From contig CAWEJX010000007.1 in assembly GCA_963809485.1 (NCBI GenBank), positions 726,673 to 790,672 on the forward strand: a stretch of DNA of 64,000 bases. The letters are read 5' to 3'. The first letter of the stretch is position 1. Each line of letters begins with the position of its first letter. Below the pieces are notes generated by a model. The model did not search any database and was not told the DNA's origin. It saw only the letters and a list, made by a program, of their open reading frames with translations. The stretch is from an uncultured Acidobacteriota bacterium (GTDB taxonomy: Bacteria > Acidobacteriota > UBA6911). The position numbers and the translations under genes are program-made. Below are positions 14,685 through 57,935 of the stretch, piece after piece.

Positions 14685-14688
14685 GTCT

Positions 14689-22582: not shown

Positions 22583-22584
22583 CA

Positions 22585-24310
22585 GTCAGTGCTCTCCGCA
22601 CCTCGTCCCGGATATCCAGCAGGTCTTTCATGACGTTGAACATGCGTCCCGACCACTGCCGGGTGCCAAAAGCATCATGCAACTGGCGGTAGAGCGCGTA
22701 CAGCTTTCGATAAATCACGATGGTGTTCGCGGCGGGCCGGTATTCCCTGCCGATTCCGACCATGGCCTTCTGCGCGTCCGCAGCCGAGTCGTATCCTCCC
22801 GCTGCCGCGCCCGCAGCGACGGCCGCAAAAACGGCGGCCCCCAGGGCCGGCGTCTGTTCGCTGCGCGAGATCTTCATGGGACGGCCGGTGATGTCGGCGT
22901 AGATCTGCATCATCAGCGGGCATTTTCGCAGGCCAGGCCGCCGCAGTTGACCACATCTTGATCGGCACGCCGTATTCCTCGATCCGATCGATGATGACCA
23001 GTGCTCCGAATCCGGTCGCTTCGAGCAGCGCCCGGTAAATCTCATGCGGCTGCGTGTGCAGCGTCTGGCCGATCAGCAGGCCCGAAAGCCGCACATCGAC
23101 CAGGATGGTGCGGTTCCCGTTGTTCCAGTCGAGCGCGAGCAGCCCGCTCTCGCCGGGCTCGAGCGCCGCCGCGGCCTTCTCGAGATTCGCAAACTGTTCG
23201 TCCTGGGTCCTGCCGTACTTCGCCGGGACCAGCGTGTTCACGAACCAGAGAAAAATGTCGCCGACGGCCGACTGTCCCGCTTCGATGCCGTAGTACCCGG
23301 CCATGACGGATCCGTCCACGATGCCGCAGACGCCCGGGAATATCCTGCAGCGGCTCATCGTTCGGGTGGATCATGATATCGCACGTGCTCGTCCCGATGA
23401 TTTTCACCAGCGTTCCCGGGGAAATCCCGGCGCCCACCGCGCCCATGTGCGCGTCGAAGGCACCCACGGCGATCGCGACGGAAGGAGAGAGCCCGAGCTG
23501 CCGCGGCCCATTCGGCGCGAAAGCGTGCCGGCGCGATGATCGGCAGTATATGCCGTGTCGTACAGTCGCGGGCGCGAGCGATCCGAGTCCCGGGGAGAAG
23601 CTGGTCGAGAAATTCGCTGTCCGGCAAGTCCGTGCCAGTGCCGGATTGAAGATGCGCCTTGTGCCCGGCCGCGCAGACGCTGCGCTTCATGCGTTCTGCG
23701 GCGACAAGCTCGCCGGTCAGGACGGCGGGAATCCAGTCGCAGATTTCAACCCAGCTGGCGGCGGCATCGAATACATCCTTCGCGACGTTTTTGCAGTGCA
23801 GGATTTTGCTCCACCACCACTCGGACGAGTAGGTGCCGCCGATTTTCGAGAGGTACTGCGGGCGCATTTCCGACGCCAGTCTGCGTGAATCTGCGCGGCT
23901 TCTTTGTAGCTCGGTGTGATCCTTCCAGAGCCACACCATTGCGGCGGGATTGTCTTTGGAATCTCTCCTGGAAACAAAGAGCCTGCCCCTCTTCATCCAC
24001 CGGCATCGGACTGCTTCCGGTGGTGTCGACTCCGATGCCGATGATGTCGGCCGGACTGAAAATCCGGATCGGCTCCTTCCCTTTTTGAATGAGCGCCCTT
24101 GATCGTTGCCTCGATGCCGAGGAGATAATCCGCCGGATTTTGCCTGGCCAGATTGGGATCCGAAGCATCGAGTAATGACGCCGTCGCTTCCCGAAGGGTA
24201 CGGGAAGACATGGCTGGCCAGTCTTCCTGTGCCCGAAGTCACGTCCACCAGCAAGCGAACGGCAGGAATTCGTGCCGAAATCCGACGAACGCCAATGATC
24301 AGCGTAGTCG
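22585..24310 (-). pseudogene. araB: Ribulokinase, heavily frameshifted
   Basis: [64 protein letters not shown] spread over 5 or more frame segments. Confidence 0.85.
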
Positions 24311-24329
24311 CGGACAGTGTGCGTCAGCG

Positions 24330-26095
<1,766 letters not shown>

Positions 26096-26116: not shown

Positions 26117-27275
26117 CTATTTGGTCGAAAATTGATAGATGGTAGTCTGACGATACATTTGTCCCGGCCTCAGCGTCACAGACGGGAATTGCGGCTTGTT
26201 CGGCGAATCGGGAAAAGCCTGGGTTTCCAGGCAGAGCCCGCTTCTGTGCTGATAGGCGACGCCGTTTTTCCCTTTCGCCGATCCGTCAAGGAAGTTGCCG
26301 GAGTAGAACTGAAGCCCCGGCTGATCGGTGAAGACGGTCATCATGCGCCCGCTGCCGACTTCATACAGCTCCGCGACCTTGCGCACACTGCCGGCGCTGC
26401 CTTTCAGGACCCAGTTGTGATCGTAGCCCTTGCCAAACGCCAGCTGCTCATTCGGCGTCGTTGATGTGCGCTCCGATCGCCATGGGAGTGCGGAAATCCA
26501 TCGGCGTGTTCGCCACATTCATCAATCTGCCCGGTCGGAATGAGTCCCTTGTCCACCGGAGTGATAGCCGTCCGCCTCGATCATCAACAGGTGATCGAGA
26601 ATCGTGTTGTCGAACGAGCCGGAGAGATTGAAATAGGAATGCTGCGTCGGATTCAGTATCGTGGGCTGGTCCGTCGTTCCTTCGTAGTCGATGCGCAGTT
26701 CGTTTTTGTCCGTCAGCGTATAGGTGACTTTCAGCGTCACCGTCCCGGGATATCCTTCTTCCCCGTCCCGGCTGACATATTGCAGCTCGAGCGACGGTTC
26801 GGCGGAATCGCTCAGAATCTTTGCATCCCATAGGACTTTGTTGAAACCGGTTTTCCCGCCGTGGAGGTGGTTCTCGCCGTCGTTGACCGTCAGCTGGTAT
26901 TGCTTTCCCGTCCAGCTGGAACTGCCCTTTGCCGATGCGGTTGCCGTAGCGTCCCACGATGGCCCCGAAATAGGCGGTGCCTTCGACGTATCCCTCCAGG
27001 GAATCGTAGCCGAGGACCACGTCCTCCATCTTGCCGTTCCGGTCGGGGACGATGAGCGACGTGACCGTCGCGCCATAGTTGATGATCCCTGCCGTGAGAC
27101 CGGAGCGGTTTTTAAGCGTGTATTGGTGCACCTCGCGTCCGTCAGGGAGTTTGCCGAAGACCGATTGCGTCATGGAGGCCGGCTCCTTTCGCTCTGTTTT
27201 CGTGGTTTCTTTGCGGCACGATGCCGCGCAAAAAATCGGGATGATGGCAAGGCAGAGAAGCGGGATACTCTTCAT
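26117..27275 (-). pseudogene. galM: Aldose 1-epimerase (mutarotase) with lipoprotein-like signal, frameshifted
   Basis: YFGAIVGRYGNRI, NHLHGG, NPTQHSYFNL, GYDHNW, PGLQFYSGNFL, CLETQ in three frames. Confidence 0.88.
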
Positions 27276-28521: not shown

Positions 28522-28645
28522 TCCGTATTTTGAAACGCTGACGTACGCTGACATGACGCTGACGTACGCTGAAAAAATATATAAATTTTTTTCGGCGTGG
28601 GTCGGCGTCCGTTCAGCGTAAGTCAGCGTTCAAGACCGGCGTAAC
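28522..28645. repeat. 124-bp exact direct repeat, copy 1 (family A element plus flanks)
   Basis: Identical to 29810-29933 by eye. Confidence 0.9.
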
Positions 28646-28719
28646 TAGTCCAACCGTTTTGAGCGGTTCAAATCCTTCAAGCCTCCGGCTTTGCCGGAGG
28701 TACCTGACTGAGGCCAGTA

Positions 28720-29829
28720 TTGCAATATCGTAAATTCGGCAGGCTTGATTGGGAAGCATCTGCGCTGGGTCTGGGCTGCGGGATGCTTCCCGATGATGCC
28801 GGCGAATCGATCGCGCTGATACGTTGCGCCATCGACAGTGGCGTGAATTACCTGGATCTGGGGCATCCCTATGATCTCGGACGCCACCAACGCGCAGCCG
28901 TGGCTGTCGGCGCCGCGCTTGCGGACGGGTACCGCAAAAAAGTCAAAGTCGCCCTGACGCTGCCCGTCCATCTCATCCATTCGAAAGCGGACCTGGAGGC
29001 GGAATTCTCCCGGCAGCTCAGCCTGATGGGCGCCGAGCGGGTGGACTTCTGCCTGTTCGGGAGTCTGAACCGCGAGAACTGGCCCGTCCTGCGTGGGCTG
29101 GGCGCGCTGGAATGGATGGAAGCCGCCCTGAAGGACGGCAGGGCCGGCTATGCCGGCTTCGCCTTCCATGACCATTATCAGCCGCTCAAGAGCATCGTGG
29201 AATCCTGGGACCGATGGTCGCTTTGCCGGTTTCAGTTCAGCTACATGGATGTCGCCCACGATCCCGGCATCACCGGCATACGGTACGCGGCCCGGAAGGG
29301 ACTCGCCGCGGTCGTGACGGAGCCCATGAAAGGGAGCCGGCTGGAACACCTGCCCGGGCCGGCTGCCGGCATGCTGGCCGGCGTGGAGAACCGCAGCCCC
29401 GCAGAATGGGCTCTGCGCTTTGTCTGGAATTTCGGGGAAATATCGACCGTCGTCCTCGACGCGAATTCCGTTGCGGGGCTGAAGAAGGCTGTGGAGCTTG
29501 CCGGCCGTTGCGGGCCGGACAGCCTGACGGTTCAGGAAGAGGTGCTGATCGGCAAAGTAAGGGATGCGCTCATGGCCCTGCGCGACATCCCGTGCCCCTC
29601 ATGCCGGGCCTGCATGCCCTGTCCCGTGGAAATCGACGTGCCGCGCATATTCGAGCTGTACAACGACGCATTCATGTACGGCGACGTGGAGAGCGCGCGT
29701 CTTATTTACCAGGATGAAGGGCACCAGCCCGGCCTGTGCACGGAATGCGGCTACTGCGAAAAAAACTGCGCCAAACGCCTCCCCGTCCTCGACCTCCTCA
29801 AGAAAGCCGTCCGTATTTTGAAACGCTGA
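28720..29829 (+). CDS. Aldo/keto reductase with C-terminal 4Fe-4S dicluster (COG1453-like)
   Basis: MQYRKFG..SALGLG, GFAFHD, EPMKG, CPSCRACMPCP, CTECGYCEKNC. Confidence 0.88.
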   Translation: MQYRKFGRLDWEASALGLGCGMLPDDAGESIALIRCAIDSGVNYLDLGHPYDLGRHQRAAVAVGAALADGYRKKVKVALTLPVHLIHSKADLEAEFSRQLSLMGAERVDFCLFGSLNRENWPVLRGLGALEWMEAALKDGRAGYAGFAFHDHYQPLKSIVESWDRWSLCRFQFSYMDVAHDPGITGIRYAARKGLAAVVTEPMKGSRLEHLPGPAAGMLAGVENRSPAEWALRFVWNFGEISTVVLDANSVAGLKKAVELAGRCGPDSLTVQEEVLIGKVRDALMALRDIPCPSCRACMPCPVEIDVPRIFELYNDAFMYGDVESARLIYQDEGHQPGLCTECGYCEKNCAKRLPVLDLLKKAVRILKR

Positions 29830-29933
29830 CGTACGCTGACATGACGCTGACGTACGCTGAAAAAATATATAAATTTTTTTCGGCGTGGGTCGGCGTCCGT
29901 TCAGCGTAAGTCAGCGTTCAAGACCGGCGTAAC
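29810..29933. repeat. 124-bp exact direct repeat, copy 2
   Basis: Identical to 28522-28645; supplies the stop codons of both the AKR and the S9 peptidase. Confidence 0.9.
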
Positions 29934-32092
29934 CCCTCCAACCGCTTTGACTTTCCACCAAATAGCGGTTCAGCCAGTCGAGGACTGTGCGGTAAAACAA
30001 CTCCGCGTTGAGCGGCTTCAGCACCCAGTGCCCTTCGTCGGGGAAGGATAGGAGTTTTGATTCGACTCCGCGCCTCTGCAGGGCGGTGAACATGGCCAGG
30101 CCTTCCGAGATCGGGACCCTGTAATCGAGCTCGCCGTGCGTCACCAGCTGCGGTGTTTTGAAATTTTTGACGTATCGGCTGGGGGAGAGGGCATCGTGCA
30201 GCGGCTGGTTTTCGTAGGGCGGGCCGCCCATTTCCCACTCGGGGAACCACAGTTCTTCGGTGACGTAGTAGCTGCTGGACTGGTCGAAATCACCCGCATG
30301 CCCGACCAGCGCTTTGAACCGGTCCGTGTGCCCCTGGAACCAGTTGATCATGAAGCCGCCGAAGGAGGCTCCCGCGGCGCCCATCCTATTGCCGTCGACA
30401 TAGGGAAGCTTCGCAACGTAATCCGCGGCCAGCATCAGGTCGCGGAAGCAGCGGCCGCCCCAGTCGCGGTTGATTTCGTCGATGAACTGCTGCCCGTAGC
30501 CCGTGGACCCGCGCGGATCGGGCATGAAGACGACGTAGCCCGCGGCGGCGTACATCTGCGGATTCCAGCGATAGCCCCAGTTGTCCCCCCACGAGCCCTG
30601 CGGCCCGCCGTGAACGAGCATGAGCGCAGGATATTTTTTAGACGGATCAAAGCGCGGCGGTTTGAGAATCCACATGTGGGCTTTGGGGATGTCGAGAGCC
30701 TTTTGCGCCGGCATCGCGGCCTCCAGCTGGACGGGGTCGATGAATCCCGCCACCGCGGCCGGATCGGTCTTCGGCCCGCCCGACGAGGGAGACGCGTCGT
30801 GCCAGTATTCCTCCGCGCGGTTCATGTCGAGTCCGGCCAGCAGAGCGTCGTTGTGGTGCGTCAGCGCCGTTGCCTGGGATCCGTCCGTTCGGACGGAATA
30901 AACTTCCGCGGGCTGATGCATCGACGACCGGGTGAAGACCAGCGTTCGCCCGTCCGGCGTCACTCCGATGTCGCCGGAGGAGTTTTCGGCGTAGATGCGC
31001 CGGATCGCGCCTCCCGCAACCGGGACCTCAAATATCGGGGTGCGGCCGCGGTCTTCGGCCAGAAAATATATCCTGCTCGAATCCGGCGCCCAGGCGAAAG
31101 AGTCGACCCAGCGGTCGAGTGCATCCGTCAGGCTGCGGCGCCTTCCCGTGGAGCGGTCGTAGATCATCAGCCGCAGGCGGTCGCTCTCGTATCCGGGGCG
31201 GGCCTGGGCGCGGTAGGCGATGTAGCGAGCGTCGGGCGAATACAGGGGAGACCCGTCGTAAGCGGGGTTTTCGGTGATTTTTTTTGTTTCACCCGTGGCG
31301 GTTGACCGTAAACAGGTCCGAGTTTGTCGACCGGGCTTCGTCGCGGTCGTGCTTCGAGGCGTAGCAGACTTCCTTGCCGTCGGGCGAGAAGGCGTAGTCG
31401 TCGGGGCCGCCCAGGGAAAACGGGGGGACGTCGTAATCGCCGGGCGTCAGGTCGCGCGGCGGCTGCGAGCCGTCCTTAGGGACGAGGAAAAGGTGGGACC
31501 GCCGGCCGTCGCTCCAGCTGCTCCAGTGGCGGAACAGCAGGCGGGTGGCGACGTGCGCCTTGACCCTGGCGTTGTCGGCCGCACTCTTCCGGCCGGCGTT
31601 GCACTCCATCGCCTTTTGCCCATCGGCGTCCGAGCATTCCGGGTAAACGTCCGACGTGAAGAGCAGGTGCTTCCCGTCGGGGCTGTAGAGCACGCCGCCG
31701 GCTTCCGTCGCGACGGATGTGACCTGGACCGCCTCGCCTCCCTCGAGAGGCAGGATGTAGACCTGGGCCCCGTCCCTCGCGGAGACAAATGCAATTTCCC
31801 TGCTGTCCGGCGACCAGCGCGGGCGCGCGTCGCTCTGTGCGGAGCGGGTGAGGCGGCGCGCCTCCCCGCCTGAAACGGGCAGGAGCCAGATGTCGGTGTT
31901 GCTGCGGTTCTTCTCTTTGTCGACCGCGGTGACCGTGTAGGCGATCCATTTGCCGTCCGGCGAGATCTGCGGGTCGCCGACGCGCTGCATCTTCATTAAA
32001 TCATCGAACCCGAGCGGCCGCTTTTCCGCGGCATCCAGGCAGATGCCCATGCTCAGGACAGTGGCGAGCAGGGCGTGAACGAAATGACGCAT
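29911..32092 (-). CDS. S9 family (acylaminoacyl/dipeptidyl) peptidase, one frameshift near 31300
   Basis: Signal peptide, PD40-like SPDG repeats, VHGGPQ, GASFGG, HGELDYRV, DEGH; manual bridge TATGETKKITENPAYDGSPLYSPD joins the two ORFs. Confidence 0.88.
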
Positions 32093-35381: not shown

Positions 35382-35507
35382 GTGAGGGACGGCTCCCCGG
35401 AGACCGTCCTGTAAGAAGAAGAATCGTGAGGACGGCTCTCCAGAGCCGTCCGATGGGGGAATATCAAGCAATAGCTTAATCGGACGGGTCTGGAGACCCG
35501 TCCTCAC
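35382..35507. repeat. Family C REP-like cluster (two direct hairpins plus one inverted)
   Basis: gtgaggacggctctccagagccgtcc ... ggacgggtctggagacccgtcctcac. Confidence 0.85.
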
Positions 35508-35515
35508 GAAAATAG

Positions 35516-36778
35516 ATGGATGCTGGGAGGGGAATTATGTTGAGGGCCGGCAATAAGTGCGGATTGGCCCGTCATTTTACCTGGGCTATTTTGCTGTGTA
35601 TCTCATTCTCTCTGGCGGCGCAGGGATGCAGGGGCCGTTCTGAATCGCAGGAGACTCCGTCCAAAGGAGGGATGCGCGGCGGTGCGGTTACGGTTGTTGC
35701 CGCCATAGCCGTCCAGAAAGACGTGCCGATCAACATCCAGGCTGTCGGCCGCATCGAGAGCTCTGCCACGGTCACCCTGAAATCCCAGATGAGCGGGGAA
35801 CTGATGCAGGTGCTTTTCCGCGAAGGAGATTTTGTCAAACAGGGGCAGGAGCTTTTCAGGGTCGATTCGCGCACCTACGAGGCGCAACTGACCCAGGCGC
35901 AGGCCAACCTGTCGAAGGATGAAGCCGCACTCGCCCAGATGGAGGCGAACCTGGCGCGCGATCTTGCCCAGCAGAAATACGCGGAATCGCAGGCCGCACG
36001 CGACCGCAGCCTCCTGGGGAAAAATCTCGTTTCGAAGGAGCAGGCGGAGCAGTCGGCCGCCAGCGCGGAAGCGGCTGCCGCGACGGTCCGGGCCGACCAG
36101 GCGGCGGTCCTGAGCGCCCGCGCCTCGATCGAAGCCACTAAAGCCGAGATCGCCAACGCCCGCATCCTGCTCGGCTACGCCAGCATCCGCTCGCCCATCA
36201 GCGGCCGGACCGGGAGCCTCCTCATCCAGCAGGGCAACCTGGTCGGCCCCAACACGGAGCTCATGACCATAAACCAGATCGAGCCGGTTTACGCCGCCTT
36301 CTCCGTGCCCGAAAATCAGCTGCCTTCCGTGAAGAAGGGGCAGGCCGTATCGATTTCGAAAGACGCGGGCCCGTCAACGTTTGAGGACGGCAAGCTTTTC
36401 TTTATCGATAACGCCGTGGATGAATCGACGGGAACCATCCTCGTCAAAGCCGCCTTTGCAAACCGCAGCCACCAGCTTTGGCCGGGCGAGTTTGTCCGCG
36501 TGGTCCTGAGGCTTGGAACCCGGGCGGGCGCTCTGGTAGTGCCCGGCCAGGCCGTGCAGGCGGGCCAGGAAGGATCGTTCGTGTTCGTCGTGAAGCCGGA
36601 CCAGACCGTCGAATCGCGCCCCGTCGTCCCCGGGATGCACGTCGATGGGCAAATTGTGATAGAAAAAGGCCTGGAACCCGGCGAAACGGTTGTCACCGAA
36701 GGCCAGCTCCGTCTCACGGCCGGCAGCAAGGTTCAGGTAACGCTGACAAACGCCGACAAAAACGCTGACGTACGCTGA
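35516..36778 (+). CDS. RND periplasmic adaptor subunit (MdtA-like)
   Basis: FREGDFVKQG, IRSPISGRTG, DNAVDESTGT, LWPGEFV; tail TLTNADKNADVR derives from repeat A. Confidence 0.92.
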   Translation: MDAGRGIMLRAGNKCGLARHFTWAILLCISFSLAAQGCRGRSESQETPSKGGMRGGAVTVVAAIAVQKDVPINIQAVGRIESSATVTLKSQMSGELMQVLFREGDFVKQGQELFRVDSRTYEAQLTQAQANLSKDEAALAQMEANLARDLAQQKYAESQAARDRSLLGKNLVSKEQAEQSAASAEAAAATVRADQAAVLSARASIEATKAEIANARILLGYASIRSPISGRTGSLLIQQGNLVGPNTELMTINQIEPVYAAFSVPENQLPSVKKGQAVSISKDAGPSTFEDGKLFFIDNAVDESTGTILVKAAFANRSHQLWPGEFVRVVLRLGTRAGALVVPGQAVQAGQEGSFVFVVKPDQTVESRPVVPGMHVDGQIVIEKGLEPGETVVTEGQLRLTAGSKVQVTLTNADKNADVR

Positions 36779-36860
36779 TATTTTTAGTAACGCCGACTTA
36801 CGCTGACAAAACCGCGGACGAACGCCGACAGATAGGATACGGGTCAGCGTATATCGGCGG
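36738..36860. repeat. Family A repeat (two left arms plus a degenerate right arm)
   Basis: taacgctgacaaacgccgacaaaaacgctgacgtacgctga..taacgccgacttacgctgac..gtcagcgtatatcggcg. Confidence 0.8.
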
Positions 36861-37293: not shown

Positions 37294-38397
37294 GTGAAAC
37301 GGAAACTGCTGCTTGCGCTCTGTGTGCTGATCGTCATAGGATATTTGATTGTCGGCCTGTGGCCCTTCGAGTTCAATCCCGACAACCGGGTGGCGTGGTC
37401 CTTAGACGGCCAGGGGATCGCCCTGAGCCATCCGTCGATCCTGTACAGTGAGAAGCCTGTCGATTTGAGAAACAGCGGGGGAAACGTCAGCGTCGAAGTG
37501 TGTCTGCAGCCGGCAGAGGAGCCCGCCTGGGGATTCACCAAAATCCTGTCCCTGTCCGAAGAAAGTGTGCGCAGGAACCTGTTTGTGGCGCAGCGGGAAA
37601 AAAATCTTTGGCTGCAGCTTCCGATATGGGACAAAGGCAGATGGAATGCCTACGACCAGGTATGGGTCAAGGGAGTGCTGCAGCGGGGCGTGCGGCGCTT
37701 TGTGGCGGTGACTGCCGGAACCGAGGGAACGGATTTTTACGTGGATGGAGTGCTGGCGCGGAGCTATCCGAAACTGAAGCCGAGGCCCAATGTGCTGCGC
37801 GGCTATGTGGTGCTGGGGGGAATCGGGAGCGGGAACCGAAACTGGGAAGGGCGGCTGTACGGCGCCGCGATATTCGACCGGACGCTTTCGGCGTCGGACA
37901 TCGCGCGCCACTACAGCCTGTGGAGCGGCGCTGAACGGCGGAAAATTGCGGAAGAGGACGGACTATCGGCGCTTTATTTTTTTGATGAAAAAGGCGGGAG
38001 CGTCGTCCGGGACCACGGACCGGCGGGTGCGACGATGCGGATCGGCGCCAAGTACCAACTGCGGGACCGCAGCGTGTTTCCGGCGTTTTGGAGGGGCGGG
38101 TACAGCCGCGTCGACATCGCCATCAACCTGCTCGGTTTCGTCCCGTTCGGCTTGTGCTATTTCCTATACAGGAAGCGGACACATCCGGGGCGGCTTTGGG
38201 GCAATATTTTCGTAACGCTCATTATTGCCGCGGCCGTCAGCGCCACGATCGAAACGCTCCAAATCTGGCTTCCGGTCCGATCCCCGTCCTACCTGGATCT
38301 CATCTGCAACATTTCGGGGGCTGCGGCAGGGTTGATTTTAACGCTGACGTACGCTGACAGAACGCCGACCCACGCTGAAAAACAAAAAATATACTGA
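37294..38397 (+). CDS. VanZ family protein with LamG-like jelly-roll domain
   Basis: LWPFEF N-terminus; FYVDG..WEGRLYGAAIFDRTLS; DIAINLLGFVPFG..IETLQIWLPVRSPSYLDLICN. Confidence 0.85.
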   Translation: MKRKLLLALCVLIVIGYLIVGLWPFEFNPDNRVAWSLDGQGIALSHPSILYSEKPVDLRNSGGNVSVEVCLQPAEEPAWGFTKILSLSEESVRRNLFVAQREKNLWLQLPIWDKGRWNAYDQVWVKGVLQRGVRRFVAVTAGTEGTDFYVDGVLARSYPKLKPRPNVLRGYVVLGGIGSGNRNWEGRLYGAAIFDRTLSASDIARHYSLWSGAERRKIAEEDGLSALYFFDEKGGSVVRDHGPAGATMRIGAKYQLRDRSVFPAFWRGGYSRVDIAINLLGFVPFGLCYFLYRKRTHPGRLWGNIFVTLIIAAAVSATIETLQIWLPVRSPSYLDLICNISGAAAGLILTLTYADRTPTHAEKQKIY

Positions 38398-38912
38398 AAT
38401 ATTTGAGCCGGTAGCGAAACAATTCCGGTATGGAACTGAAATATTCCGAAACTACCGGGCCATTGATCGACCTTTTTTTCGACGTATACAAAACGCTAGG
38501 ATATGGATTTCTGGAACGGGTTTATGGAAAAGCCATGACGGTAGCGGGACCGAAGTATGGGCTCATAATCAAGCCGGAAGTCAAAATTAGGGTGTTTTTT
38601 GAAGGCATAGAGGTTGGCAAATACGAGCCGGATCTGATTGTGAATGATGCCGTGATTGTGGAGCTGAAAACATGCCAGGCGATCCTCAAAGAACATGAGG
38701 CTCAGCTGTTGAACTACCTCAAGGCCACGAAGTACGAAGTCGGCTTTCTGTTTAACTTTGGCCCCATCGCGCGATATAAGCGCATGGTTTTTGAAAACGC
38801 GCGCAAGGGCACTCTTTCATGGATCCAGCCGCAGCCCGATCCGGCAACATTGCCATAGCAGGCTGGATTTTTTCAGCGTGTGTCGGCGTCCGGTCAGCGT
38901 GCGTCAGCGTTA
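38338..38912 (+). mobile_element. Putative GxxExxY element: family A left arm + GxxExxY gene + family A right arm
   Basis: Left arm 38338-38385 ttaacgctgacgtacgctgacagaacgccgacccacgctgaaaaa; right arm 38868-38912 ttttttcagcgtgtgtcggcgtccggtcagcgtgcgtcagcgtta; the arms are inverted relative to each other. Confidence 0.6.
38430..38858 (+). CDS. GxxExxY protein (PDDEXK_3-type nuclease fold)
   Basis: LGYGFLERVY (GxxExxY), PDLIVNDAVIVELK, HEAQLLNYLKAT..VGFLFNFG. Confidence 0.95.
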   Translation: MELKYSETTGPLIDLFFDVYKTLGYGFLERVYGKAMTVAGPKYGLIIKPEVKIRVFFEGIEVGKYEPDLIVNDAVIVELKTCQAILKEHEAQLLNYLKATKYEVGFLFNFGPIARYKRMVFENARKGTLSWIQPQPDPATLP

Positions 38913-39814
38913 TTCAGATACCACCGGTAAGTGGCCTCTATGCCCTGGCGCAACGGGATTTTGGGTTGCCAGCCGAGATAGCGGAGGCGCGAGACGTCCA
39001 TGAGCTTGCGCGGCGTGCCGTCGGGCATCGCCGGATCGAACTCGATGTCACCCTCATACCCCACCACCTCGCGCACCATCTCGCACAGCTCGCGTATCGT
39101 CAGGTCCTCGCCCGTCCCCACGTTGATGATCTCTTCCTGATCGTAGCGCTCCATCAGGAATACCAACGCGTCGGCGAGGTCGTCGACGTGCAGGAACTCC
39201 CGCCTCGGCGTCCCCGTCCCCCACACCTTGACGCTCGGCGTGCCCGCCGCTTTGGCGTCGTGGAATTTCCGCAGCAGCGCAGGAAGCACGTGCGACGTCT
39301 GCAAATCGAAGTTGTCCCCCGGCCCGTACAGGTTGGTCGGCATGGCGCTGATGGCGGCAAACCCGTACTGGCGGCGGTAGGCCTGGCAAAGCTTGATGCC
39401 GGCGATCTTGGCGATGGCGTACCACTCGTTGGTCGGCTCGAGCGGCCCGGTCAGCAGGTGCTCTTCGCGCAGCGGCTGCGGCGCCAGTTTCGGGTAAATG
39501 CACGACGAGCCCGTAAAGAGCAGCTTCTTGACTCCGCAGCGCCACGCTGCGTGGATGACGTTCGCCTCGATCATCAGGTTCTGGTAAATGAATTCCGCCG
39601 GGTAAGCATTGTTGGCCTGTATCCCGCCGACGCGCGCCGCGACCAGGTACACCTGCTCCGGCCGCTCTTTTTCGAAGAAAGCGTTTGCAGCCCGCTGGTC
39701 CATCAGGTCCAGTTCATCGATCGTCCGGACCAGCAGCCCCTCAGGTCCGCCCAGCCGCCGCACAATCGCGGAACCTACGAGACCCGTGTGGCCCGCAACA
39801 TAGATCTTCGTCAT
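38894..39814 (-). CDS. fcl: GDP-L-fucose synthase
   Basis: [49 protein letters not shown]. Confidence 0.96.
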
Positions 39815-39828
39815 AGATTCGCCTTTCT

Positions 39829-40869
39829 TCAAACTCCTCGCCTCACCGAAACCTTATGCCCGGCATTGCGCAGCGTGCATTCCTGTTTGGCCAGTTCCAT
39901 GTCATGGTCGACCATCATGCGCACGAGCTCCTTGAAGCTCACCTTGGGCTTCCAGCCGAGTCTGGCCCGCGCTTTGGAGCTGTCGCCTTCCAGATGATCG
40001 ACTTCCGTCGGACGGAAGTAGCGCGTATCCTTTTCGACCAACACTTTCCAGTCGACGCCGGCATAGCCGGCGGCTTCATCCAGAAATTCCCGCACCGTGT
40101 GCGTCTCGCCCGTGGCGATGACGTAGTCGTCGGGGGCGGGCTGCTGCAGCATGAGCCACATGGCCTCGACGTAGTCGCCGGCGAATCCCCAGTCGCGCTT
40201 CGCCTCGAGGTTGCCGAGGTAGAGCTTCGTCTGCAGGCCTTGCTTGATGCGCCCGAGTGCGCGGGTGATCTTGCGCGTGACGAAAGTCTCGCCGCGCTGC
40301 GGCGATTCGTGGTTGAAGAGGATGCCGTTGCAGATGAAAAGCCCGTAAGCTTCGCGGTAGTTCACGGCGTACCAGTGGGCGGCCACTTTGCTCACTCCGT
40401 AGGGGCTGCGCGGATAGAAGGGCGTCGTCTCGCTCTGCGGCGGCGCGGCCTTGCCGAACATTTCCGAGGAGCCGGCCTGATAGAAGCGTATGGGTTCGTG
40501 CGAGCCGGCGCCGTAATCGTGTATGGCTTCGAGCATGCGCAGAGTGCCGGTCGCCACGGCGTCGGCGGTGTATTCCGGCTGGTCGAACGACACGCGCACG
40601 TGCGACTGCGCCCCGAGGTTGTAGACTTCGTCCGGGGCCGTCTTTTCCAGGATGCGCCTCAGGCTGGTCGCGTCCGTCAGGTCGCCGTAATGCAGAAAAA
40701 TGCGGCTGCCCGATTCATGCGGGTCGAGGTAAATGTCGTCGATGCGGTCGGTGTTGAAGGTGCTCGTCCTGCGCATGATGCCGTGGACTTCGTAACCCTT
40801 CGACAGCAATAGCCGGGCCAGGTAGGATCCGTCCTGGCCCGTCACCCCCGTAATCAACGCTTTCTTCAT
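39829..40869 (-). CDS. gmd: GDP-mannose 4,6-dehydratase
   Basis: [48 protein letters not shown]. Confidence 0.97.
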
Positions 40870-40892: not shown

Positions 40893-40990
40893 TGAACGCT
40901 GACACACGCTGACAAAACGCTGACGCACGCCGAAATTTTATATATTTTTTTCAGCGTGTGTCGGCGTTTTGTCAGCGTACGTCAGCGTTA
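40893..40990. repeat. Family A palindromic repeat
   Basis: tgaacgctgacacacgctgacaaaacgctgacgcacgccgaaattttatatatttttttcagcg...gtcagcgtta. Confidence 0.92.
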
Positions 40991-42764
40991 TGCTTTGCCA
41001 TGCTTTCGCGTACTTGCCGTTTTTTGCGACTAGCTCTGCGTGCGTACCCGTTTCGACAATTCTACCCTGGTCCATAACATATATTACATCCGCATGACGC
41101 GCCGTGGTGAATCTGTGAGTTATGAGGATCGTCGTTCTGCCGGAGACGGCGGAACGGAAGCGGGTCAGCCAGGCGGCTTCAGCCCACGGGTCCATGGCGC
41201 TGGTCGGCTCGTCGAGTATGATGACGGGCGCGGGCCGCAGGAACGCACGGGCCAGGCCCAGGCGCTGCCACTCGCCGGCGCTGAGATCGGTCCCGTCTTC
41301 GAACCAGGTGCCGAGGATGGAGTCGTATCCCGAAGGCAGCCGGCTGATGACTTCGTCCGCGCCGGAGCTTTTGGCGGCTTTCTGCAGACGCGCTGCGCCG
41401 GGCGCCGACGCGTGATCGCCGAGGGCGATATTTTCGGCCGCGGTGGCGTTATAGGGCACGGCGGGCTGGAAGAGGGCCGTGATGTGCCGGCGCAGGTCTT
41501 CGGCGGCGAGAGCGCGCAGGTCGGTCCCGCCCAGCTCGATGCGTCCCGACTGGGGATCGTAGAAACGGCAGAGCAGCTTCACCAGGGTGCTCTTGCCGGC
41601 GCCGTTGGTCCCGACCACCGCAACGATTTTCCCCGCGGGAATGGACAGGCTGACGCGGTCCAGCACCAGCCGCCGGCTGCCGGGGTAGTGGAACGTGACG
41701 TCGCGGAATTCGATGCCGAGCGGTCCTTGGCCAGCTTCCGGCAGCAGCGCAGGTTTTTCAGGATCTTTGATCCCCGGCTGAAGGGCGAGGAACTGGAACA
41801 GGTCGCCGAGGAAGAGGCTGTTGCTGTAAATCTGCCCGGCGTTTTCCAGCAGCGAGCGCATGAGCCCCTGGCCCTGGCTGAAGGCCTGGTAAAAGAGCGC
41901 GAGGTCGCCCAGAGTTGCCTGTCTCTGCAGGGCGCGCCAGCCGATCCACGCCATGGCCGCGCCGGCCACGGCAAGGGCTGCGGCGCCGGCGGCCAGCTGG
42001 GCGAGCGCCTGTTTGCGGGCCATGTCGAGGCGTTCGCCGCGCAGGCGGCTGCGCAGCGCCTGGTAGGCGCCGCGGAAACGGCCTCCGAGGTCGAACAGGC
42101 GCAGTTCGGCCGCGCATTCGCGCGCGGTGACAAGCCAGTCATAGTACCAGGTGCGCCGCTCGTCGGCGGTGGTGCGCAGGCGCCAGGCGTGCTGCAGCAG
42201 CGTGTAGCGCACGACGACGTAGAGCGCCGGCATCGTGCCGGCCAGCAGCGCAATCGGCAGCCACAGGCCGTACGGGGCAAGGATCACCAGCATGGCAGCC
42301 AGCGTGATGCCGTTCTGCAGCATGCTGCCGATGCTTTCGAGCAGCGCGATCGGCCGGTAGCCGGCTTCGCTGCGCGCGCGGTGCAGATGGTCGAAATATT
42401 CCGGCAGGTCGTAGAACGCGAGGTCGACTTCCACCGACTTGCGGTGGATCAGGGAATTGATGTGGTCCTGGACCAGTTCGGACTGCACGGCGCGTATCCA
42501 GCCGATCGCGCCGCGCAGCAGTTCGCCGAGCAGGAGGATGGCCGCCATCGCCGCGGCCAGCATGACGGACAGGCGGATGTCGCGCGCCACCAGCGCATTC
42601 ACGAGCGCGCGTGTCAGGTAGACCGTAGCGGCCGGCAGCAGTCCCTGCACGACAAGCAGAATCCCCCACGCCACCGTCCAGCCCCGCGCCCCGTCCCAGA
42701 CGAGGCCCAGGGCTCTGGGCAAATGAGGAATAGTCCGACGAATTCTATCGCTAACTTCAGTCAT
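40938..42764 (-). CDS. ABC exporter (fused TMD + NBD)
   Basis: [27 protein letters not shown]; tail [16 protein letters not shown] derives from repeat A. Confidence 0.93.
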
Positions 42765-42770: not shown

Positions 42771-42847
42771 AAACGTTGAACGTTAGCACGTTAAACGTTG
42801 AACGTTCTAACGTTTAAACGTTCCAACGTTCAACGTTCAACGTTCAA
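42771..42847. repeat. Family B AACGTT array
   Basis: aaacgttgaacgttag..aaacgttgaacgttctaacgtttaaacgttccaacgttcaacgttcaacgttc. Confidence 0.85.
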
Positions 42848-44140
42848 CAAGTGCATCACATTGTCGCCGCCCGCGGCAACTTCGGAGGCGATGATGCCGT
42901 CCCGGTCGACGACAACGGCGGATGGTGTGCCGCTGACGCCAAATGCATGCGCGGTGGCGAATTCGGCGTCCAGGACCACAGGCGATCGGAAACCCTGCGC
43001 GCGGTTTTCATCGGCGCTTCCGGTGGAAACAATCAGCAGTTTGGGCGCATCGCGGTTTTCGGATTCCCACGCGCGGACTCGATCGAGCACCTGTTGGCAG
43101 TAGCCGCAGTTGGGATTCCAGAAGAGGATGGCGGTCGGGCTGCCGCGAAAGGACGCCAGATCGACGGTCTTGCCGTCCAGGCCGGGCAGGCGCACTTCGG
43201 GCGCGCGGTCGCCCTTCTTCGCCGCCGGGGGCAGGGCAGCCTGGCGCACAAGTTCGCGTATACGGTCGGATCCGGCGGCCACGGCGCTCGCGATCGTGCC
43301 GTCGGCGTTTATGAGCACGGCTCCCGGCGTGCCGCCGTACTGGTACGCTTCGGCGACGGGGTGTGTGGCGCCCGTTTCGCTGATGACCTGGATGGTCAGG
43401 CGGCCGGCGTGGCGCGTCAGCCAATCTTGTATTTCGGGCTGCAGCGCCTGGCACGGCGTGCAGTCGGGCTCGACAAAGATCAGCAGCACAGGCTTGTTCG
43501 CAGCGAGCAGGCTTTTCAGCGTCACGTTTTCGTGCGTGAAATCGGGCGCCGGCGAGCCCTGCGGCAGTCCGAGGGGAGGCGGGGCCGGGGCTTCGATGCC
43601 GAGCTTCGATTCGAGAGTTTCGATGCGCAGCATCAGGCGGCCGTTCTGCCGCAGCAGGTAGATCAAAATCCACAGGTTCAGCGCCGCCAGGGCTGCGATG
43701 GCCGGCCACCAGCCGATTTCGGGCTGCGGGTAGGCGGGTCCGCGCCACAGTATGAAAAGAGCGGCCGCGGCCAGCGCGTAATTGCGCGCCAATGTTTTCC
43801 AGCCGATGGGCGACGAGTGGATCTGCCCGAAGCAGTGGCAATCGGGCTTGCGGCCGAGTGCGAGGTTGAGGGAAATGCCCGCGATAAAGACCAGCAGCAG
43901 CGCGAGAGCCAGCGCCGCGCCATACCAGCCCGTGCGGCCGGGAACAAGCGCCGCCGCCGCAATCAGCTCGACAACAGGCACGGCGAGCCCGAAGAATCCC
44001 GCCAGGATCTTCGGGACCCCGAAGTCCCGCATCGACTTGCGCGAGCCCGCACGGTCCGCCAGCTTCGCAATCCCCGCCACCGCAAATACAGCACTTACGA
44101 TTACTCTCAGCAAGACAATGAATGCATTTATATATTCCAT
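42830..44140 (-). CDS. MauE/DoxX membrane domain fused to two thioredoxin-like (redoxin) domains
   Basis: AGIAKLAD..PDCHCFG..LARN; APDF..EPDCTPC..GTPGAVLI; GDRAPE..WNPNCGYC..GTPSAVVV. Confidence 0.88.
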   Translation of the reverse strand: MEYINAFIVLLRVIVSAVFAVAGIAKLADRAGSRKSMRDFGVPKILAGFFGLAVPVVELIAAAALVPGRTGWYGAALALALLLVFIAGISLNLALGRKPDCHCFGQIHSSPIGWKTLARNYALAAAALFILWRGPAYPQPEIGWWPAIAALAALNLWILIYLLRQNGRLMLRIETLESKLGIEAPAPPPLGLPQGSPAPDFTHENVTLKSLLAANKPVLLIFVEPDCTPCQALQPEIQDWLTRHAGRLTIQVISETGATHPVAEAYQYGGTPGAVLINADGTIASAVAAGSDRIRELVRQAALPPAAKKGDRAPEVRLPGLDGKTVDLASFRGSPTAILFWNPNCGYCQQVLDRVRAWESENRDAPKLLIVSTGSADENRAQGFRSPVVLDAEFATAHAFGVSGTPSAVVVDRDGIIASEVAAGGDNVMHLLNVER

Positions 44141-44186
44141 TTTTTTTCAGCGTGTGTCGGCGTTCTGTCAGCGTACGTCAGCGTTC
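44130..44186. repeat. Family A half element
   Basis: ttttttttcagcgtgtgtcggcgttctgtcagcgtacgtcagcgttc. Confidence 0.85.
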
Positions 44187-45494: not shown

Positions 45495-45598
45495 TTAACG
45501 CTGACGTACGCCGACAAAACGCTGACACACGCCGAAAAAATTTATATATATATATTTTTTCAGCGTAAGTCAGCGTCCTTCAGCGTAAGTCAGCGTTA
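45495..45598. repeat. Family A palindromic repeat
   Basis: ttaacgctgacgtacgccgacaaaacgctgacacacgccgaaaaaatttatatatatatatttttt..gtcagcgtta. Confidence 0.92.
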
Positions 45599-47475: not shown

Positions 47476-47805
47476 ATGGCCGCCGACAGACTGCTCGATA
47501 CCATTTCGCGTACCCTTGCTTCGCCGATTCCGCGCCGGAGCGCGGTGAAACTGATTGCGGGGGGCATAGGGGCTGCGGCCGCGGCATTTTTCAGCGGCAG
47601 GGAAGCGCGCGCGGAGTGCAAGAAGAACGAGATCGTTTGCGGCCAGAGCTGCTGCCCGCACGGGCATGTTTGTACGAGCCCTGGGGTCTGCTGTCCGCCG
47701 GGGCACGTATGCGGCAACCTGTGCTGCCCGACGGGAAACAGCTGCGTCGAGGAAAACGGCCGGTATCACTGCCGGTCGAAAAAACCCTCGAAGAGCGACC
47801 GATAA
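47476..47805 (+). CDS. Cys-rich (12 Cys) exported protein, paralog of 46826-47329
   Basis: GGAGG RBS; leader LLDTISRTLASPIPRRSAVKLIAGG..EARA; mature CKKNEIVCGQSCCPHGHVC.. is nearly identical to the C-terminal half of the paralog. Confidence 0.85.
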   Translation: MAADRLLDTISRTLASPIPRRSAVKLIAGGIGAAAAAFFSGREARAECKKNEIVCGQSCCPHGHVCTSPGVCCPPGHVCGNLCCPTGNSCVEENGRYHCRSKKPSKSDR

Positions 47806-47882
47806 AACGTTGAACGTTTGAACGTTTGCACGTTATAACGTTCCAACGTTCCAACCTTTCACGTTTCACGTTTCACGTTCCA
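47804..47882. repeat. Family B AACGTT array
   Basis: aaacgttgaacgtttgaacgtttg..aacgttccaacgttccaacctttcacgtttcacgtttcacgttc. Confidence 0.85.
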
Positions 47883-49301: not shown

Positions 49302-49385
49302 GTAACGCTGACCTACGCCGACAAAACGCCGACGTACGCTGAAAAGGCATTTAAATATTTTTTTGTCAGCGTCTGTCAGCGTTCA
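49302..49385. repeat. Family A palindromic repeat
   Basis: gtaacgctgacctacgccgacaaaacgccgacgtacgctgaaaaggcatttaaatattt..gtcagcgtt. Confidence 0.9.
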
Positions 49386-49542: not shown

Positions 49543-49797
49543 ATGCGACTCATCCCCTACACGAGCGAACTGTTTGAGGAAGACGGACAGGTTGTGGCGC
49601 TATGTCCGGAACTGAATGTATCGAGTTATGGCGACACTTCAGTGGAAGCGCTCAATTCGCTAAAGGAGGCGGTGGAGCTTTTTCTGGAGGAATGTCGGAG
49701 AATGGGCACGCTGGATATAGTTTTGGAAGAGGCCGGGTACCGTCGTGAACCGGGCAACAGTGATCGGTATTTTGAGTTGCTTGACCAGATAAAATAG
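49543..49797 (+). CDS. HicB family antitoxin (no adjacent HicA)
   Basis: GGAGG RBS; VVALCPELNVSSYGDTSVEALNSLKEAVELFLE. Confidence 0.88.
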   Translation: MRLIPYTSELFEEDGQVVALCPELNVSSYGDTSVEALNSLKEAVELFLEECRRMGTLDIVLEEAGYRREPGNSDRYFELLDQIK

Positions 49798-49894
49798 TGC
49801 CCTGACCCTATCAGCTAATCCCGAGCCCGTCTATTTACAGCTTTTCAGCGCCCTCTATTATTTCGCAACCATCAGGCAAGGTCAGCGGGAGACG

Positions 49895-50000
49895 CAAAAT
49901 CGAGCACCCGTTTATTGGGGAAGCGGATTTCTCCCGGAAGCGAGTCTTGACGAGCAGGTCTCCTGTTCGCTTTGCGGCGAGAAATGCGCCCAAAAAGCCC
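49895..50000 (-). pseudogene. Second internally deleted Rpn remnant
   Basis: KRTGDLLVKTRFREK joined directly to tttattggggaagcggattt, which matches Rpn at ~59082 (IRFPNK codons). Confidence 0.55.
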
Positions 50001-50001
50001 G

Positions 50002-50102
50002 TAACGCTGACGCACGCTGACAAAACACCGACGAACGCTGAAAAAAACTATATATATTTTGGGTCGGCGTGCGTCCGCGTTTTGTCAGCGTATGTCAGCG
50101 TT
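50002..50102. repeat. Family A palindromic repeat
   Basis: taacgctgacgcacgctgacaaaacaccgacgaacgctgaaaaaaactatatatatttt..gtcagcgtt. Confidence 0.9.
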
Positions 50103-50307
50103 CTTTCCACGTTCAACGCTTTTTATTGTTGCGCAGCCATCAGGCCAGGGGGCTTGCAGATGCGTTGATAGAGCTGATGTTTTTTGTTTACCATACCGTC
50201 ATTTTACGCCGTTTTTCGACGTCAAACCATGCATCCTTCCCAGCCTCCGACTTTTTAGAGCGTCAACCTGCCGATGTGTAATGCAAAACGCCGTAAGAAT
50301 TAGAATC

Positions 50308-50389
50308 GTGAGGACGGCTCTCCAGAGCCGTCCGATGGGCGAATGACTGGTAGTCGCCTAATCGGACGGGTCTGGAGACCCGTCCTCAC
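50308..50389. repeat. Family C REP-like inverted doublet
   Basis: gtgaggacggctctccagagccgtccgatggg..aatcggacgggtctggagacccgtcctcac; arms identical to 35426-35507. Confidence 0.88.
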
Positions 50390-50404
50390 GAAAAACTTAC
50401 CAAG

Positions 50405-50806
50405 CTATTTTGCCCAATTCCCGATTTTCAGATCCGGCACGCGACGGAACTCTTTTTCATTGTTGGTGACGAGCGTGCAAGGGATTGAGAGCGCGTGAGC
50501 GGCGATCAGCATATCGAGTGAGCCCATGGGCGTACTCTGTTTTTCCAGATGGGCTCTCAGATCGCCGTAGCATAGAGCGGCTTCATCGTCATAGGGCGCG
50601 ATCTCCAGCGGCGCAACAAACTGGGTCAAGGCCATCAGGTTCTGTTGAGGCCTGGAGCTCTTTGAAACACCGTAATAGAGCTCGCTCAGGGTAATGGACG
50701 AAATGCCGATTTGCGAAATTGCAGATCGTTTAAAGCGTCTTATCACATCCGGGGGAGCGCCCTTGATGATGTATATACAGGTGTTTGTATCAAGCATGAA
50801 CTCCAT
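50405..50806 (-). CDS. vapC: VapC PIN toxin
   Basis: MLDTNTCIYI, ITLSELYYG, DMLIAAHA, LVTNNEKEF. Confidence 0.95.
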   Translation of the reverse strand: MEFMLDTNTCIYIIKGAPPDVIRRFKRSAISQIGISSITLSELYYGVSKSSRPQQNLMALTQFVAPLEIAPYDDEAALCYGDLRAHLEKQSTPMGSLDMLIAAHALSIPCTLVTNNEKEFRRVPDLKIGNWAK

Positions 50807-51039
50807 CAGAATCGCTCGCGGGGATGCTGATGGGGTTGATTTCTGTTTTCCAGGTAGTCGTCGGTAAACTGGTCAAGGCTATGGATGAGTGGGGACCAGG
50901 GATCGTCTGCCGGAAGGAGGACGACCATCCTGCCGATTTTTTTTACATAGACATCTTTCCCGGAAAACCTGAGATCTTTCGGCAACCTTACCGCCTGGCT
51001 GCGGCCATTCGTGAATATCCTAGCCGTCCGCATGACCAT
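50806..51039 (-). CDS. vapB: VapB antitoxin (AbrB type)
   Basis: TARIFTNGRSQAVRLPK. Confidence 0.93.
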   Translation of the reverse strand: MVMRTARIFTNGRSQAVRLPKDLRFSGKDVYVKKIGRMVVLLPADDPWSPLIHSLDQFTDDYLENRNQPHQHPRERF

Positions 51040-51112: not shown

Positions 51113-51214
51113 TAACGCTGACATACGCTGACAAAACGCTGACATACGCTGAAAAGGCATTTAAATATTTTTTTGTCGGCGTGTGTCGGCGTTTTGTCAG
51201 CGTACGTCAGCGTT
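51113..51214. repeat. Family A palindromic repeat
   Basis: taacgctgacatacgctgacaaaacgctgacatacgctgaaaaggcatttaaatatt..gtcagcgtt. Confidence 0.92.
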
Positions 51215-57861: not shown

Positions 57862-57935
57862 CCGCCCAATGCATTCAACATATGCATTCTATGACTACAT
57901 ATAATTGTAGTCAACAATAATTTTTTAACGCTGAC

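Follow-up and report, generated by a model that had tools for sequence, protein, structure and literature searches.

The DNA analysed here is a 64,000-nt stretch (the window) from an uncultured Acidobacteriota bacterium, positions 726,673 to 790,672 of contig CAWEJX010000007.1. It contains a small gene of the GxxExxY nuclease family, located between two convergent genes, a vanZ-like/LamG-like open reading frame (ORF) at 37294-38397 and fcl, encoding GDP-L-fucose synthase, at 38894-39832 on the minus strand. The gene is bracketed by two inverted arms made of short, regularly spaced units, and the same arms are found throughout the window as compact gene-less palindromes (family A). Here we describe this split element and its counterparts around GxxExxY genes of other phyla, and consider whether gene and arms make up a selfish cassette.

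The split element has two 44-nt arms (38339-38382 and 38869-38912) with 91% complementarity, and the GxxExxY gene is the sole family-supported ORF in the 486 nt between them. The left-arm units ACGCTGAC, ACGCTGAC, ACGCCGAC and ACGCTGA start at 38341, 38351, 38362 and 38372; the order of the variable base (T,T,C,T) is common to both arms, whose spacers differ at 4 bases. The left arm is 0.95 and the right arm 0.91 identical to the consensus arm of the family, compared with a median of 0.82 for 38 gene-less arms, 7 of which reach 0.90. The inner flanks of this filled copy, GAAAAAC AAAAAATATA... and ...TTTTTTCAGCGT, each correspond to one half of the gene-less centres, and the start of 38383-38429 resembles the left half. 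The element occupies the entire gap between its neighbours: the last ~19 codons of the vanZ-like ORF are encoded by the left arm, and the last 5 codons and TGA stop of fcl are supplied by the right arm. G+C content at third codon positions (GC3) is 0.58 in the GxxExxY gene versus 0.72-0.83 in the neighbours. A promoter and terminator scan of 38200-39000 gave no sigma-70-like promoter-like or terminator-like site.

A single GxxExxY ORF was detected in the window with hmmsearch. Its product matches TIGR04256 GxxExxY (109 bits, cut-off 35, 1.6e-31) and PF13366 PDDEXK_3 (116.7 bits, cut-off 22, 9.4e-34) and contains the motifs GFLERVY (residues 26-32) and PDLIV...VELK. Residues E29, D68, E78, K80, Q92 and Y96 (Q92xxxY96) are invariant in an alignment of 29 sequences, the window protein and 28 relatives with 49-88% identity to it within the alignment; these form the E...D...ExK...QxxxY motif set of RecB-family PD-(D/E)XK nucleases. 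An AF2 model (pLDDT 89, pTM 0.81) predicts a restriction-endonuclease-like fold, whose best Foldseek matches, at modest TM-scores of 0.4-0.5, are Cas4 SSO0001 (4ic1, E 1e-4), a Spirosoma restriction-endonuclease-like protein, lambda exonuclease, AdnAB/AddAB nuclease domains and Hjc; 3ijm is also among the matches of the model. A PDB sequence search with the family profile gave 0 matches. Otherwise, only weak Cas4 or endonuclease profile matches were obtained from Pfam, PADLOC and PHROGs (E about 0.005 in the latter two), so the protein is assigned to no known defence family.

The family has at least 6031 near-length relatives at E <= 0.001, and at least 592 of 603 reference-genome stretches among the matches listed encode relatives. 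Protein identity reaches 91% in the closest homologues. Its members are stand-alone proteins of ~130 aa, without iron-sulphur (Fe-S) cysteines and without partner genes; longer forms (7 of 171 candidates) look like read-through fusions into neighbouring genes. A tblastn search of a phage collection gave no match, and a plasmid collection yielded 8 records with relatives (27-41% identity), all typed non-mobilizable.

Family A is strongly over-represented in the window, with 130 matches to ACGCYGAC on both strands against 5.44 +/- 2.18 expected (100 shuffles, shuffle maximum 13). Same-strand spacing between units is 10 nt in 70 cases and 11 nt in 25. There are 19 compact palindromes, mostly with 3-4 units per arm and a few with 1-2, and about five partial or solo arms (24299-24330, 36740-36850, 44147-44184, 57928-57955 and 58380-58466). 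Eighteen of the 19 compact copies have centres of 17-27 nt with 73-100% A+T; in the remaining one, a degenerate copy at 62454-62534, the centre is 37 nt long and 59% A+T. At the outer ends the sequence is (T)AACGCTGAC...GTCAGCGTT(A). The sequence-only reading of this DNA had proposed about 25 family-A elements, units at 10-11-bp spacing, AT-rich centres of about 20 bp and one element split around the GxxExxY gene alone, and all of this is borne out by the counts above.

Four host ORFs end inside family-A arms (35516-36778, 37294-38397, 38894-39832 and 40938-42764), with C-terminal tails such as ...LTNADKNADVR (35516-36778) and ...NNADAR (38894-39832) read from the arms. As the TGA of a unit or a downstream stop closes the host reading frame, family-A repeats rewrite protein C-termini. 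The minus-strand gene at 42830-44140 has its start codon inside the A+T-rich centre of the solo arm at 44147-44184. A 141-nt repeat (97% identical, 28522-28662 and 29810-29950), consisting of a family-A palindrome plus flanks, lies on either side of an aldo/keto reductase gene (28720-29829). A second candidate split pair, 57919-57945 with 58445-58471, was rejected: its right arm is already paired with a degenerate left arm of its own at ~58380-58420, as revealed by an 88% copy at 62446-62610, and a solo left arm remains at 57919-57945.

GxxExxY loci in other genomes

The comparison loci are the best 80 of at least 592 relatives of one subfamily in reference genomes (45-55% protein identity), from Chloroflexota, Acidobacteriota, Bacteroidota, Ignavibacteriota, Planctomycetota, Nitrospirota, Gemmatimonadota and others; the source genome is absent from the set and ORF calls in these loci are mechanical. 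An arm score was computed as the best local alignment of the 250 nt upstream with the reverse complement of the 250 nt downstream, and 75 of the 80 loci could be scored, the other five being without flank or stop codon. The median score was 18.5, with 51 loci at 16 or above, 32 at 20 or above and 18 at 25 or above; the window locus scores 34. For 1500 random positions of the same span the median was 9.0 and none reached 16. The 747 other ORFs of at least 80 aa in the same loci also had a median of 9.0, with 16 of them (2.1%) reaching 16 and 9 reaching 20; among small other ORFs, 7 of 235 reached 16. Six of the 16 arm-bearing other ORFs are known or suspected selfish genes, namely four TIGR02436 four-helix-bundle genes, one more GxxExxY gene and one IS200/RAYT-like gene (L076; IS, insertion sequence; RAYT, REP-associated tyrosine transposase; REP, repetitive extragenic palindrome). 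The last, with its REP-like flanks, acts as a positive control for the flank test.

The arms in these loci are arrays of 2-5 inward-pointing units AC[GA]CNGA(T/C) spaced 9-11 bp (10 nt in 90 cases, 9 nt in 41 and 11 nt in 7). Enriched 7-mers are ACACGGA (89 copies, 100-fold), CGCGGAT (84), ACGCGGA (73), ACGCTGA (43) and ACGCAGA (32), and they point inward on both sides, as in the 73:4 ratio of ACGCGGA. Position weights from 284 units read tGAAC[G/A]C[G>T,A]GAT, informative only at the variable and flanking positions, as the units were collected by a pattern fixing A1, C2, C4, G6 and A7. The unit core is kept in hosts of 32-68% GC, and ACGCYGAC of the window is a variant of it with C for T at position 8.

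Architecture was classed in the 74 of 80 loci with at least 160 nt of flank, the other 6 flanks being too short. Only inward units were found on both sides in 42 loci, and 5 more have inward units nearest the gene and extra units outside. Complete palindromes lie on both sides in 7 loci and on one side in 8; 6 loci have no strict unit (several have variant units) and 6 have another architecture. ORFs next to the arms often extend into them. A C-terminal R is present in 50 of 120 close homologues, and 21 end in A[DE]xR, which is the translated unit up to its TGA. At L001:780-1400 a GxxExxY 3' tail and the start of the next palindrome are repeated upstream of the left arm, which suggests tandem duplication of arm-gene modules.

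Split pairs, defined as a plus array followed 61-2000 nt later by a minus array with at least 2 units in each, number 28 in 1.22 Mb comprising the window and ~1.16 Mb of other loci, and 26 of them enclose a GxxExxY ORF. Of the remaining two, one is the false split of the window and the other encloses an ordinary L071 gene that has a complete palindrome on each side. Gene and arms occur together across phyla, and split arrays enclose almost only GxxExxY. Compact palindromes with arrays of at least 2 units number 26 in the same DNA, 18 in the window and 8 elsewhere, a density of gene-less palindromes ~40-fold greater in the window than in the other loci. In other genomes the arms go with the gene, and few copies lack it. 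Among the distant members on plasmids and chromids (27-41% identity), 6 of the 8 records were examined; clear arms are present in one (Bacteroides finegoldii), partial arms in two (Treponema and Gemmatirosa), and none or direct repeats in three.

Several properties point to insertion of a foreign unit. In 74 of 79 loci the gene has a lower GC3 than its neighbours (mean difference -0.135), and the codon composition of the cassette looks foreign. Median gaps to host genes are 61 nt upstream and 48.5 nt downstream. The gene is co-directional with its upstream neighbour in 59 of 71 loci and with its downstream neighbour in 59 of 70, compared with 536 of 762 for adjacent ORFs in general (p = 0.019 for the upstream count). 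In a Sphingomonas chromid (L086) it is inserted in a fab string, fabD-GxxExxY-fabG-acpP-fabF, with gaps of 3-33 nt, and in B. finegoldii (L085) it follows radA in the order radA-GxxExxY-FAD protein, with gaps of 44-59 nt. No target-site duplication beyond that of shuffled pairs was found in 42 split loci (lengths 0, 1, 2 and 3 in 26, 14, 1 and 1 loci versus 29.2, 9.8, 2.1 and 0.6 in the null). TA is frequent on both sides of the window elements, but being itself palindromic it permits no duplication call there.

The state of unit position 3 (G or A) was mapped on a tree of 80 proteins, in which 45 loci with at least 3 units and at least 75% in one state were labelled (23 G, 22 A) and 35 were unlabelled. 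It requires 9 changes versus 15.2 +/- 1.8 in shuffles, 1 of 1000 shuffles being as low; within Chloroflexota alone (29 loci) it requires 3 versus 9.8, with 0 of 1000 as low. The unit variant follows the protein tree, so gene and arms are inherited as one module.

Most expectations of the sequence-only reading extended to these genomes. GxxExxY genes are bracketed by inverted arms far more often than other genes (51 of 75 loci versus 16 of 747 ORFs), the arms have the phased unit core of family A, and the motif co-varies with GxxExxY phylogeny (9 changes versus 15.2). Its further suggestion that the arms would be the most abundant palindrome of each genome did not hold, as there are 8 compact palindromes in ~1.16 Mb elsewhere versus 18 in the 64-kb window.

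A candidate selfish cassette and the alternatives

We tentatively favour the view that the gene together with its arms is a single conserved selfish cassette of ~0.55 kb, whose nuclease would recognise its own arms and whose gene-less derivatives would have been amplified in this genome; with binding, cleavage and mobility inferred, we rate it nearly as probable as not. On either arm, several nuclease protomers would bind to the phased units, the DNA most probably being folded back or in hairpin form, and the nuclease would cut at the arms. Host repair, replication or ligation might then complete movement or maintenance of the cassette. The gene-less palindromes would have arisen by internal deletion, retaining the binding sites and being mobilised in trans, a logic as in REPINs (REP doublets forming hairpins) with their RAYTs, or in foldback elements, with a different enzyme.

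The order of events could also be the reverse. If the compact palindromes came first, a homing-type nuclease might cut their A+T-rich centre while the two arms are adjacent, repair templated by a filled copy through arm homology would bring the gene in, and separation of the arms would protect the filled copy. The filled element does read as a compact copy with ~470 nt inserted in its centre, its inner flanks match the halves of gene-less centres, target-site duplication is lacking and the 44-nt arms could act as homology. Yet only 1 of ~20 window palindromes is filled, the opposite of efficient homing. Elsewhere the gene comes with its arms and compact targets are few (8 in ~1.16 Mb versus 26 GxxExxY-enclosing split arrays, one of them that of the window), and across phyla unit core and gene are conserved together. 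We consider homing unlikely.

An RNA-level role of the arms seems similarly improbable. In this explanation the element would resemble an intervening sequence (IVS): the arms would pair in a read-through transcript, and RNase III would cut the stem, or the stem would mask the ribosome-binding site, insulating the gene, with the protein unrelated to the arms. Co-direction with the neighbours (59/71 and 59/70), the small gaps and the lack of promoter- or terminator-like sites in 38200-39000 are in keeping with it, as are the inverted unit arrays of four-helix-bundle genes in the comparison loci and the precedent of the Coxiella 23S rRNA IVS (PMC4990558). The arms themselves argue otherwise. In 61 elements with scores of at least 16, the two arms mismatch at 12.3% of unit columns (134/1092) and 22.9% of spacer columns (397/1730), and no RNA wobble bias was seen in these elements, with 95 G.U-type versus 104 A.C-type mismatches on the sense strand (p = 0.57) and a wobble-type total of 199/531, about the one-third share expected by chance. 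Across 38 loci, the match at variable positions was 0.636 in the same register, 0.606 out of register within the same element and 0.432 between different loci, in a comparison where strict unit calling can shift the register. As in-register and out-of-register units match almost equally, arm complementarity stems chiefly from the arraying of one unit type per element in opposite orientations, and pairing position by position is not what is kept. Phased DNA binding sites fit this better than an RNA stem does. The unit sequence itself is conserved over 32-68% GC, beyond what complementarity asks. Rfam returned no family at gathering score in the window, including 38200-39050, and in 13 short loci only sub-threshold microRNA (miRNA)-hairpin look-alikes on the L059 palindromes.

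It is quite improbable that the arms belong to another enzyme, be it one of the Rpn/YhgA-like nucleases of the window or a host recombinase, with GxxExxY as cargo or bystander. Two full and one partial Rpn-family genes are present, and solo and degenerate family-A arms lie near them. The Rpn copies are, however, bounded by arrays and hairpins of two other repeats (families B and C, see below) rather than by family A, split ACRCNGA arrays enclose GxxExxY in 26 of 28 cases with no other cargo seen, and other cassette genes carry other units. A coincidence of two independent half-elements flanking an ordinary small gene between convergent genes is scarcely credible: solo arms do exist (44147-44184, 57928-57955) and one apparent split pair proved false, but the arms here are full-length, 91% complementary and alike in unit order, and the layout recurs in 51 of 75 unrelated loci versus 2.1% of other ORFs.

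The selfish-cassette interpretation has difficulties of its own. A 142-aa hydrolytic nuclease cannot rejoin DNA alone. The combination of one gene with many palindromes rests on 64 kb, the best comparison locus having 55% protein identity among the matches listed, and only 1 of ~20 palindromes in the window carries the gene. In the comparison set, 24 of 75 loci score below 16 and 6 of 74 are without strict units; architectures differ, with complete palindromes on both sides in 7 loci and on one side in 8; the tails of many close homologues read into an outward-starting unit (A[DE]xR in 21 of 120). Only 1 clear and 2 partial sets of arms occur among the 6 distant members. Finally, the tree signal can arise from simple co-inheritance and is by itself no proof of co-evolution.

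A wider proposal, which we regard as possible but somewhat doubtful, is that GxxExxY cassettes represent a phylum-spanning new class of prokaryotic mobile DNA, in which a stand-alone RecB/Cas4-like nuclease of ~130 aa would recognise arrays of a conserved 8-nt word and propagate both itself and arm-only palindromes. If true, this would be the first function for a family with thousands of members and would add, besides RAYTs, a second enzyme class breeding REP-like repeats; the four-helix-bundle (S23p-like) genes, with their own unit arrays, would then exemplify the cassette principle in a sister case. Having a conserved DNA word linked to the gene provides biochemistry with a concrete substrate and offers a reason why GxxExxY turns up as single-gene insertions within housekeeping operons. 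Should the nuclease act on the arms, this would be a new enzyme-repeat pairing generating REP-like palindromes. The spread of small repeats through bacterial genomes and the annotation of ORFs whose ends run into arms would both be affected, and there might be implications for sequence-specific DNA tools.

Other repeats and genes

Coordinates of the split element and of the repeats are collected in Table 1. Family B consists of separate dispersed palindromes of (A)ACGTT(G/C)AACGTT units at ~7-8-nt spacing, arrayed in both orientations as in family A. Family C consists of two identical inverted repeats at 35424-35509 and 50306-50391, with 31-nt arms TCGTGAGGACGGCTCTCCAGAGCCGTCCGAT and a 24-nt spacer.

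Table 1. Coordinates of the GxxExxY element, family-A copies and other repeats in the window
Feature	Position	Strand	Remarks
Left arm	38339-38382	+	Four inward units behind outer TAAC end
A+T-rich inner flank and short leader	38383-38429	+	From left arm to ATG
GxxExxY gene	38430-38858	+	142 aa; TIGR04256 / PF13366 profile matches
Right arm	38869-38912	-	Inverted copy of left arm, four units
Gene-less palindrome	40896-40988		Compact-form example; 4+4 units, 17-nt centre, 100% A+T
Gene-less palindrome	57082-57180		4+4 units, 23-nt centre
Gene-less palindrome	51115-51213		4+4 units; centre variant common to 49305-49382
Gene-less palindrome	51405-51503		4+4 units
Gene-less palindrome	28535-28630		Near-identical twin at 29823-29918
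Gene-less palindrome	29823-29918		Twin of 28535-28630
Gene-less palindrome	45498-45596		4+4 units
Gene-less family-A palindrome	19666-19768
Gene-less family-A palindrome	50004-50101
Gene-less family-A palindrome	7346-7440
Gene-less family-A palindrome	32132-32218
Gene-less family-A palindrome	9632-9723
Gene-less palindrome	1709-1786		Short left arm
More copies of the 1709-1786 kind	3830-3898, 12478-12556, 15861-15928, 18990-19052, 49305-49382, 62454-62534
Solo right arm	44147-44184	-	With half a centre
Family-B palindromes	10858-10977, 14629-14686, 42788-42843, 47805-47866, 58330-58372
Family-C-related hairpins	59518-59563, 61407-61452, 63136-63223

The Rpn/YhgA-like nuclease genes (PF04754 and DUF4351), two full (58537-59484 and 60439-61374, both minus strand) and one partial (61660-61935), lie in repeated segments bounded by family-B AACGTTSAACGTT arrays at the 3' end of the gene and by a family-C hairpin (GTGAGGACGGGTCTCCAGACCCGTCC) upstream. 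Together with families B and C they form a second repeat-nuclease association in the window; as mobilisers of family A they were rejected, showing no association with it. Toxin-antitoxin-like pairs (PIN with MazE-like, PIN with RHH, and DUF5615/PIN-like with DUF433) at 49543-51039, 57206-57861, 59666-60258 and 63524-63805 are interleaved with repeats and Rpn genes, and 57-64 kb, where GC3 is lower, resembles a mobile-gene island.

TIGR02436, the family of the 23S rRNA IVS protein and of Avd-like proteins, is represented in the comparison loci by four genes bracketed by inverted short-unit arrays: L001:4983-5357 (minus strand), L002:7431-7838 (plus), L038:5330-5662 (plus) and L054:11972-12352 (plus). 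Their units all differ (TTCGAGA, GGTGATTA, GTAAGWA and TTGATTG), and these genes may represent a parallel cassette class.

Two regions of the window, 22199-24254 and 26117-27076, contain apparently split genes, which may be pseudogenes or frameshifts. Among these are a class II aldolase fragment of 127 aa and the C-terminal piece of an FGGY kinase, both beside ORFs without family matches, and an aldose 1-epimerase divided over two ORFs (profile positions 63-180 and 202-299).

Comparison with known systems

We found no description of GxxExxY genes as phased-arm cassettes in a literature whose coverage excludes subscription journals and about 1.7 million PubMed Central (PMC) articles. Within it, the name GxxExxY led to nothing on function, six 18-nt arm strings were found in no paper, and the literature on IVS and four-helix-bundle mobile elements, REPIN/RAYT/PDDEXK and bacterial foldback elements gave no description. 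For PDDEXK_3, PF13366 and TIGR04256 only unrelated work and a survey table were found, and in that survey the function of PF13366 is listed as 'Unknown' (PMC3424549).

The sequence-only reading had likened the layout to RAYT/REPIN and to pairs of IS and miniature inverted-repeat transposable elements (MITEs). A gene between inverted repeats accompanied by empty copies is indeed present; the IS/MITE parallel fails for want of a target-site duplication and the RAYT parallel fails on the enzyme. With REPIN/RAYT the element shares a dispersed palindrome family, a gene flanked by inverted copies of it and the lack of target-site duplication, and many gene-less REPIN copies are thought to be moved in trans. 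The enzyme there is an HUH/Y1 IS200-like transposase, whereas here it is a PD-(D/E)XK hydrolase and the split element contains no Y1 gene. The REP unit is a single imperfect palindrome of 20-40 bp with a conserved GTAG or CGTC head (PMC3733652). By contrast, the arms described here are arrays of 2-5 phased 8-nt units with TAAC, GGAC or GAAC heads, and the gene usually lies between the two arms of a single element.

Pairs of MITEs and elements with terminal inverted repeats (TIRs) likewise combine a gene-bearing copy with short gene-less ones, but the GxxExxY element has no DDE transposase, and its 42 split loci no target-site duplication. 'Peel and paste' elements of the IS200/IS605 type resemble it in small size, lack of target-site duplication and hairpin-forming ends recognised as structure and sequence; they differ in requiring a Y1 TnpA, for which there is no gene here, and in having asymmetric subterminal hairpins, where the ends here are symmetric arrays. 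Homing endonuclease genes are inserted in the cleavage site of their own product, and alleles lacking them exist. The GxxExxY gene lies within the centre of a palindrome that also has gene-less copies; however, in genomes where such copies are few, the arms still go with the gene.

At the level of the protein, the predicted fold and the E...D...ExK...QxxxY motifs of GxxExxY match those of RecB-family nucleases such as Cas4, lambda exonuclease and the AddAB/AdnAB domains. Cas4 cuts DNA overhangs sequence-specifically, and TnsA of Tn7 is a PD-(D/E)XK nuclease of transposition. GxxExxY differs from Cas4, TnsA and the RecB family in its small size, its lack of Fe-S cysteines and its stand-alone gene.

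The 23S rRNA IVS is a selfish element of ~0.4-0.6 kb with one small S23p four-helix-bundle ORF and complementary termini; in Coxiella a 28-bp terminal stem encloses the ORF, and the IVS is cut out by RNase III (PMC4990558). The window ORF is also bracketed by complementary termini, and relatives of the four-helix-bundle ORF in the comparison loci have inverted unit arrays too. The window element differs in its position between the vanZ-like and fcl genes (no rRNA was found in the window), in its protein family, in its conserved arm sequence and in showing no wobble signature.

Eukaryotic foldback (FB) transposons have long inverted arms of short tandem subrepeats, most copies being arms only and few having coding sequence between them. 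The resemblance is architectural only, as FB elements are eukaryotic, much larger and encode unrelated proteins. By analogy, then, the GxxExxY element would be functionally most like REPIN/RAYT and architecturally like foldback elements; what would be new here is the pairing of selfish DNA and its non-autonomous derivatives with a new enzyme and a new end architecture.

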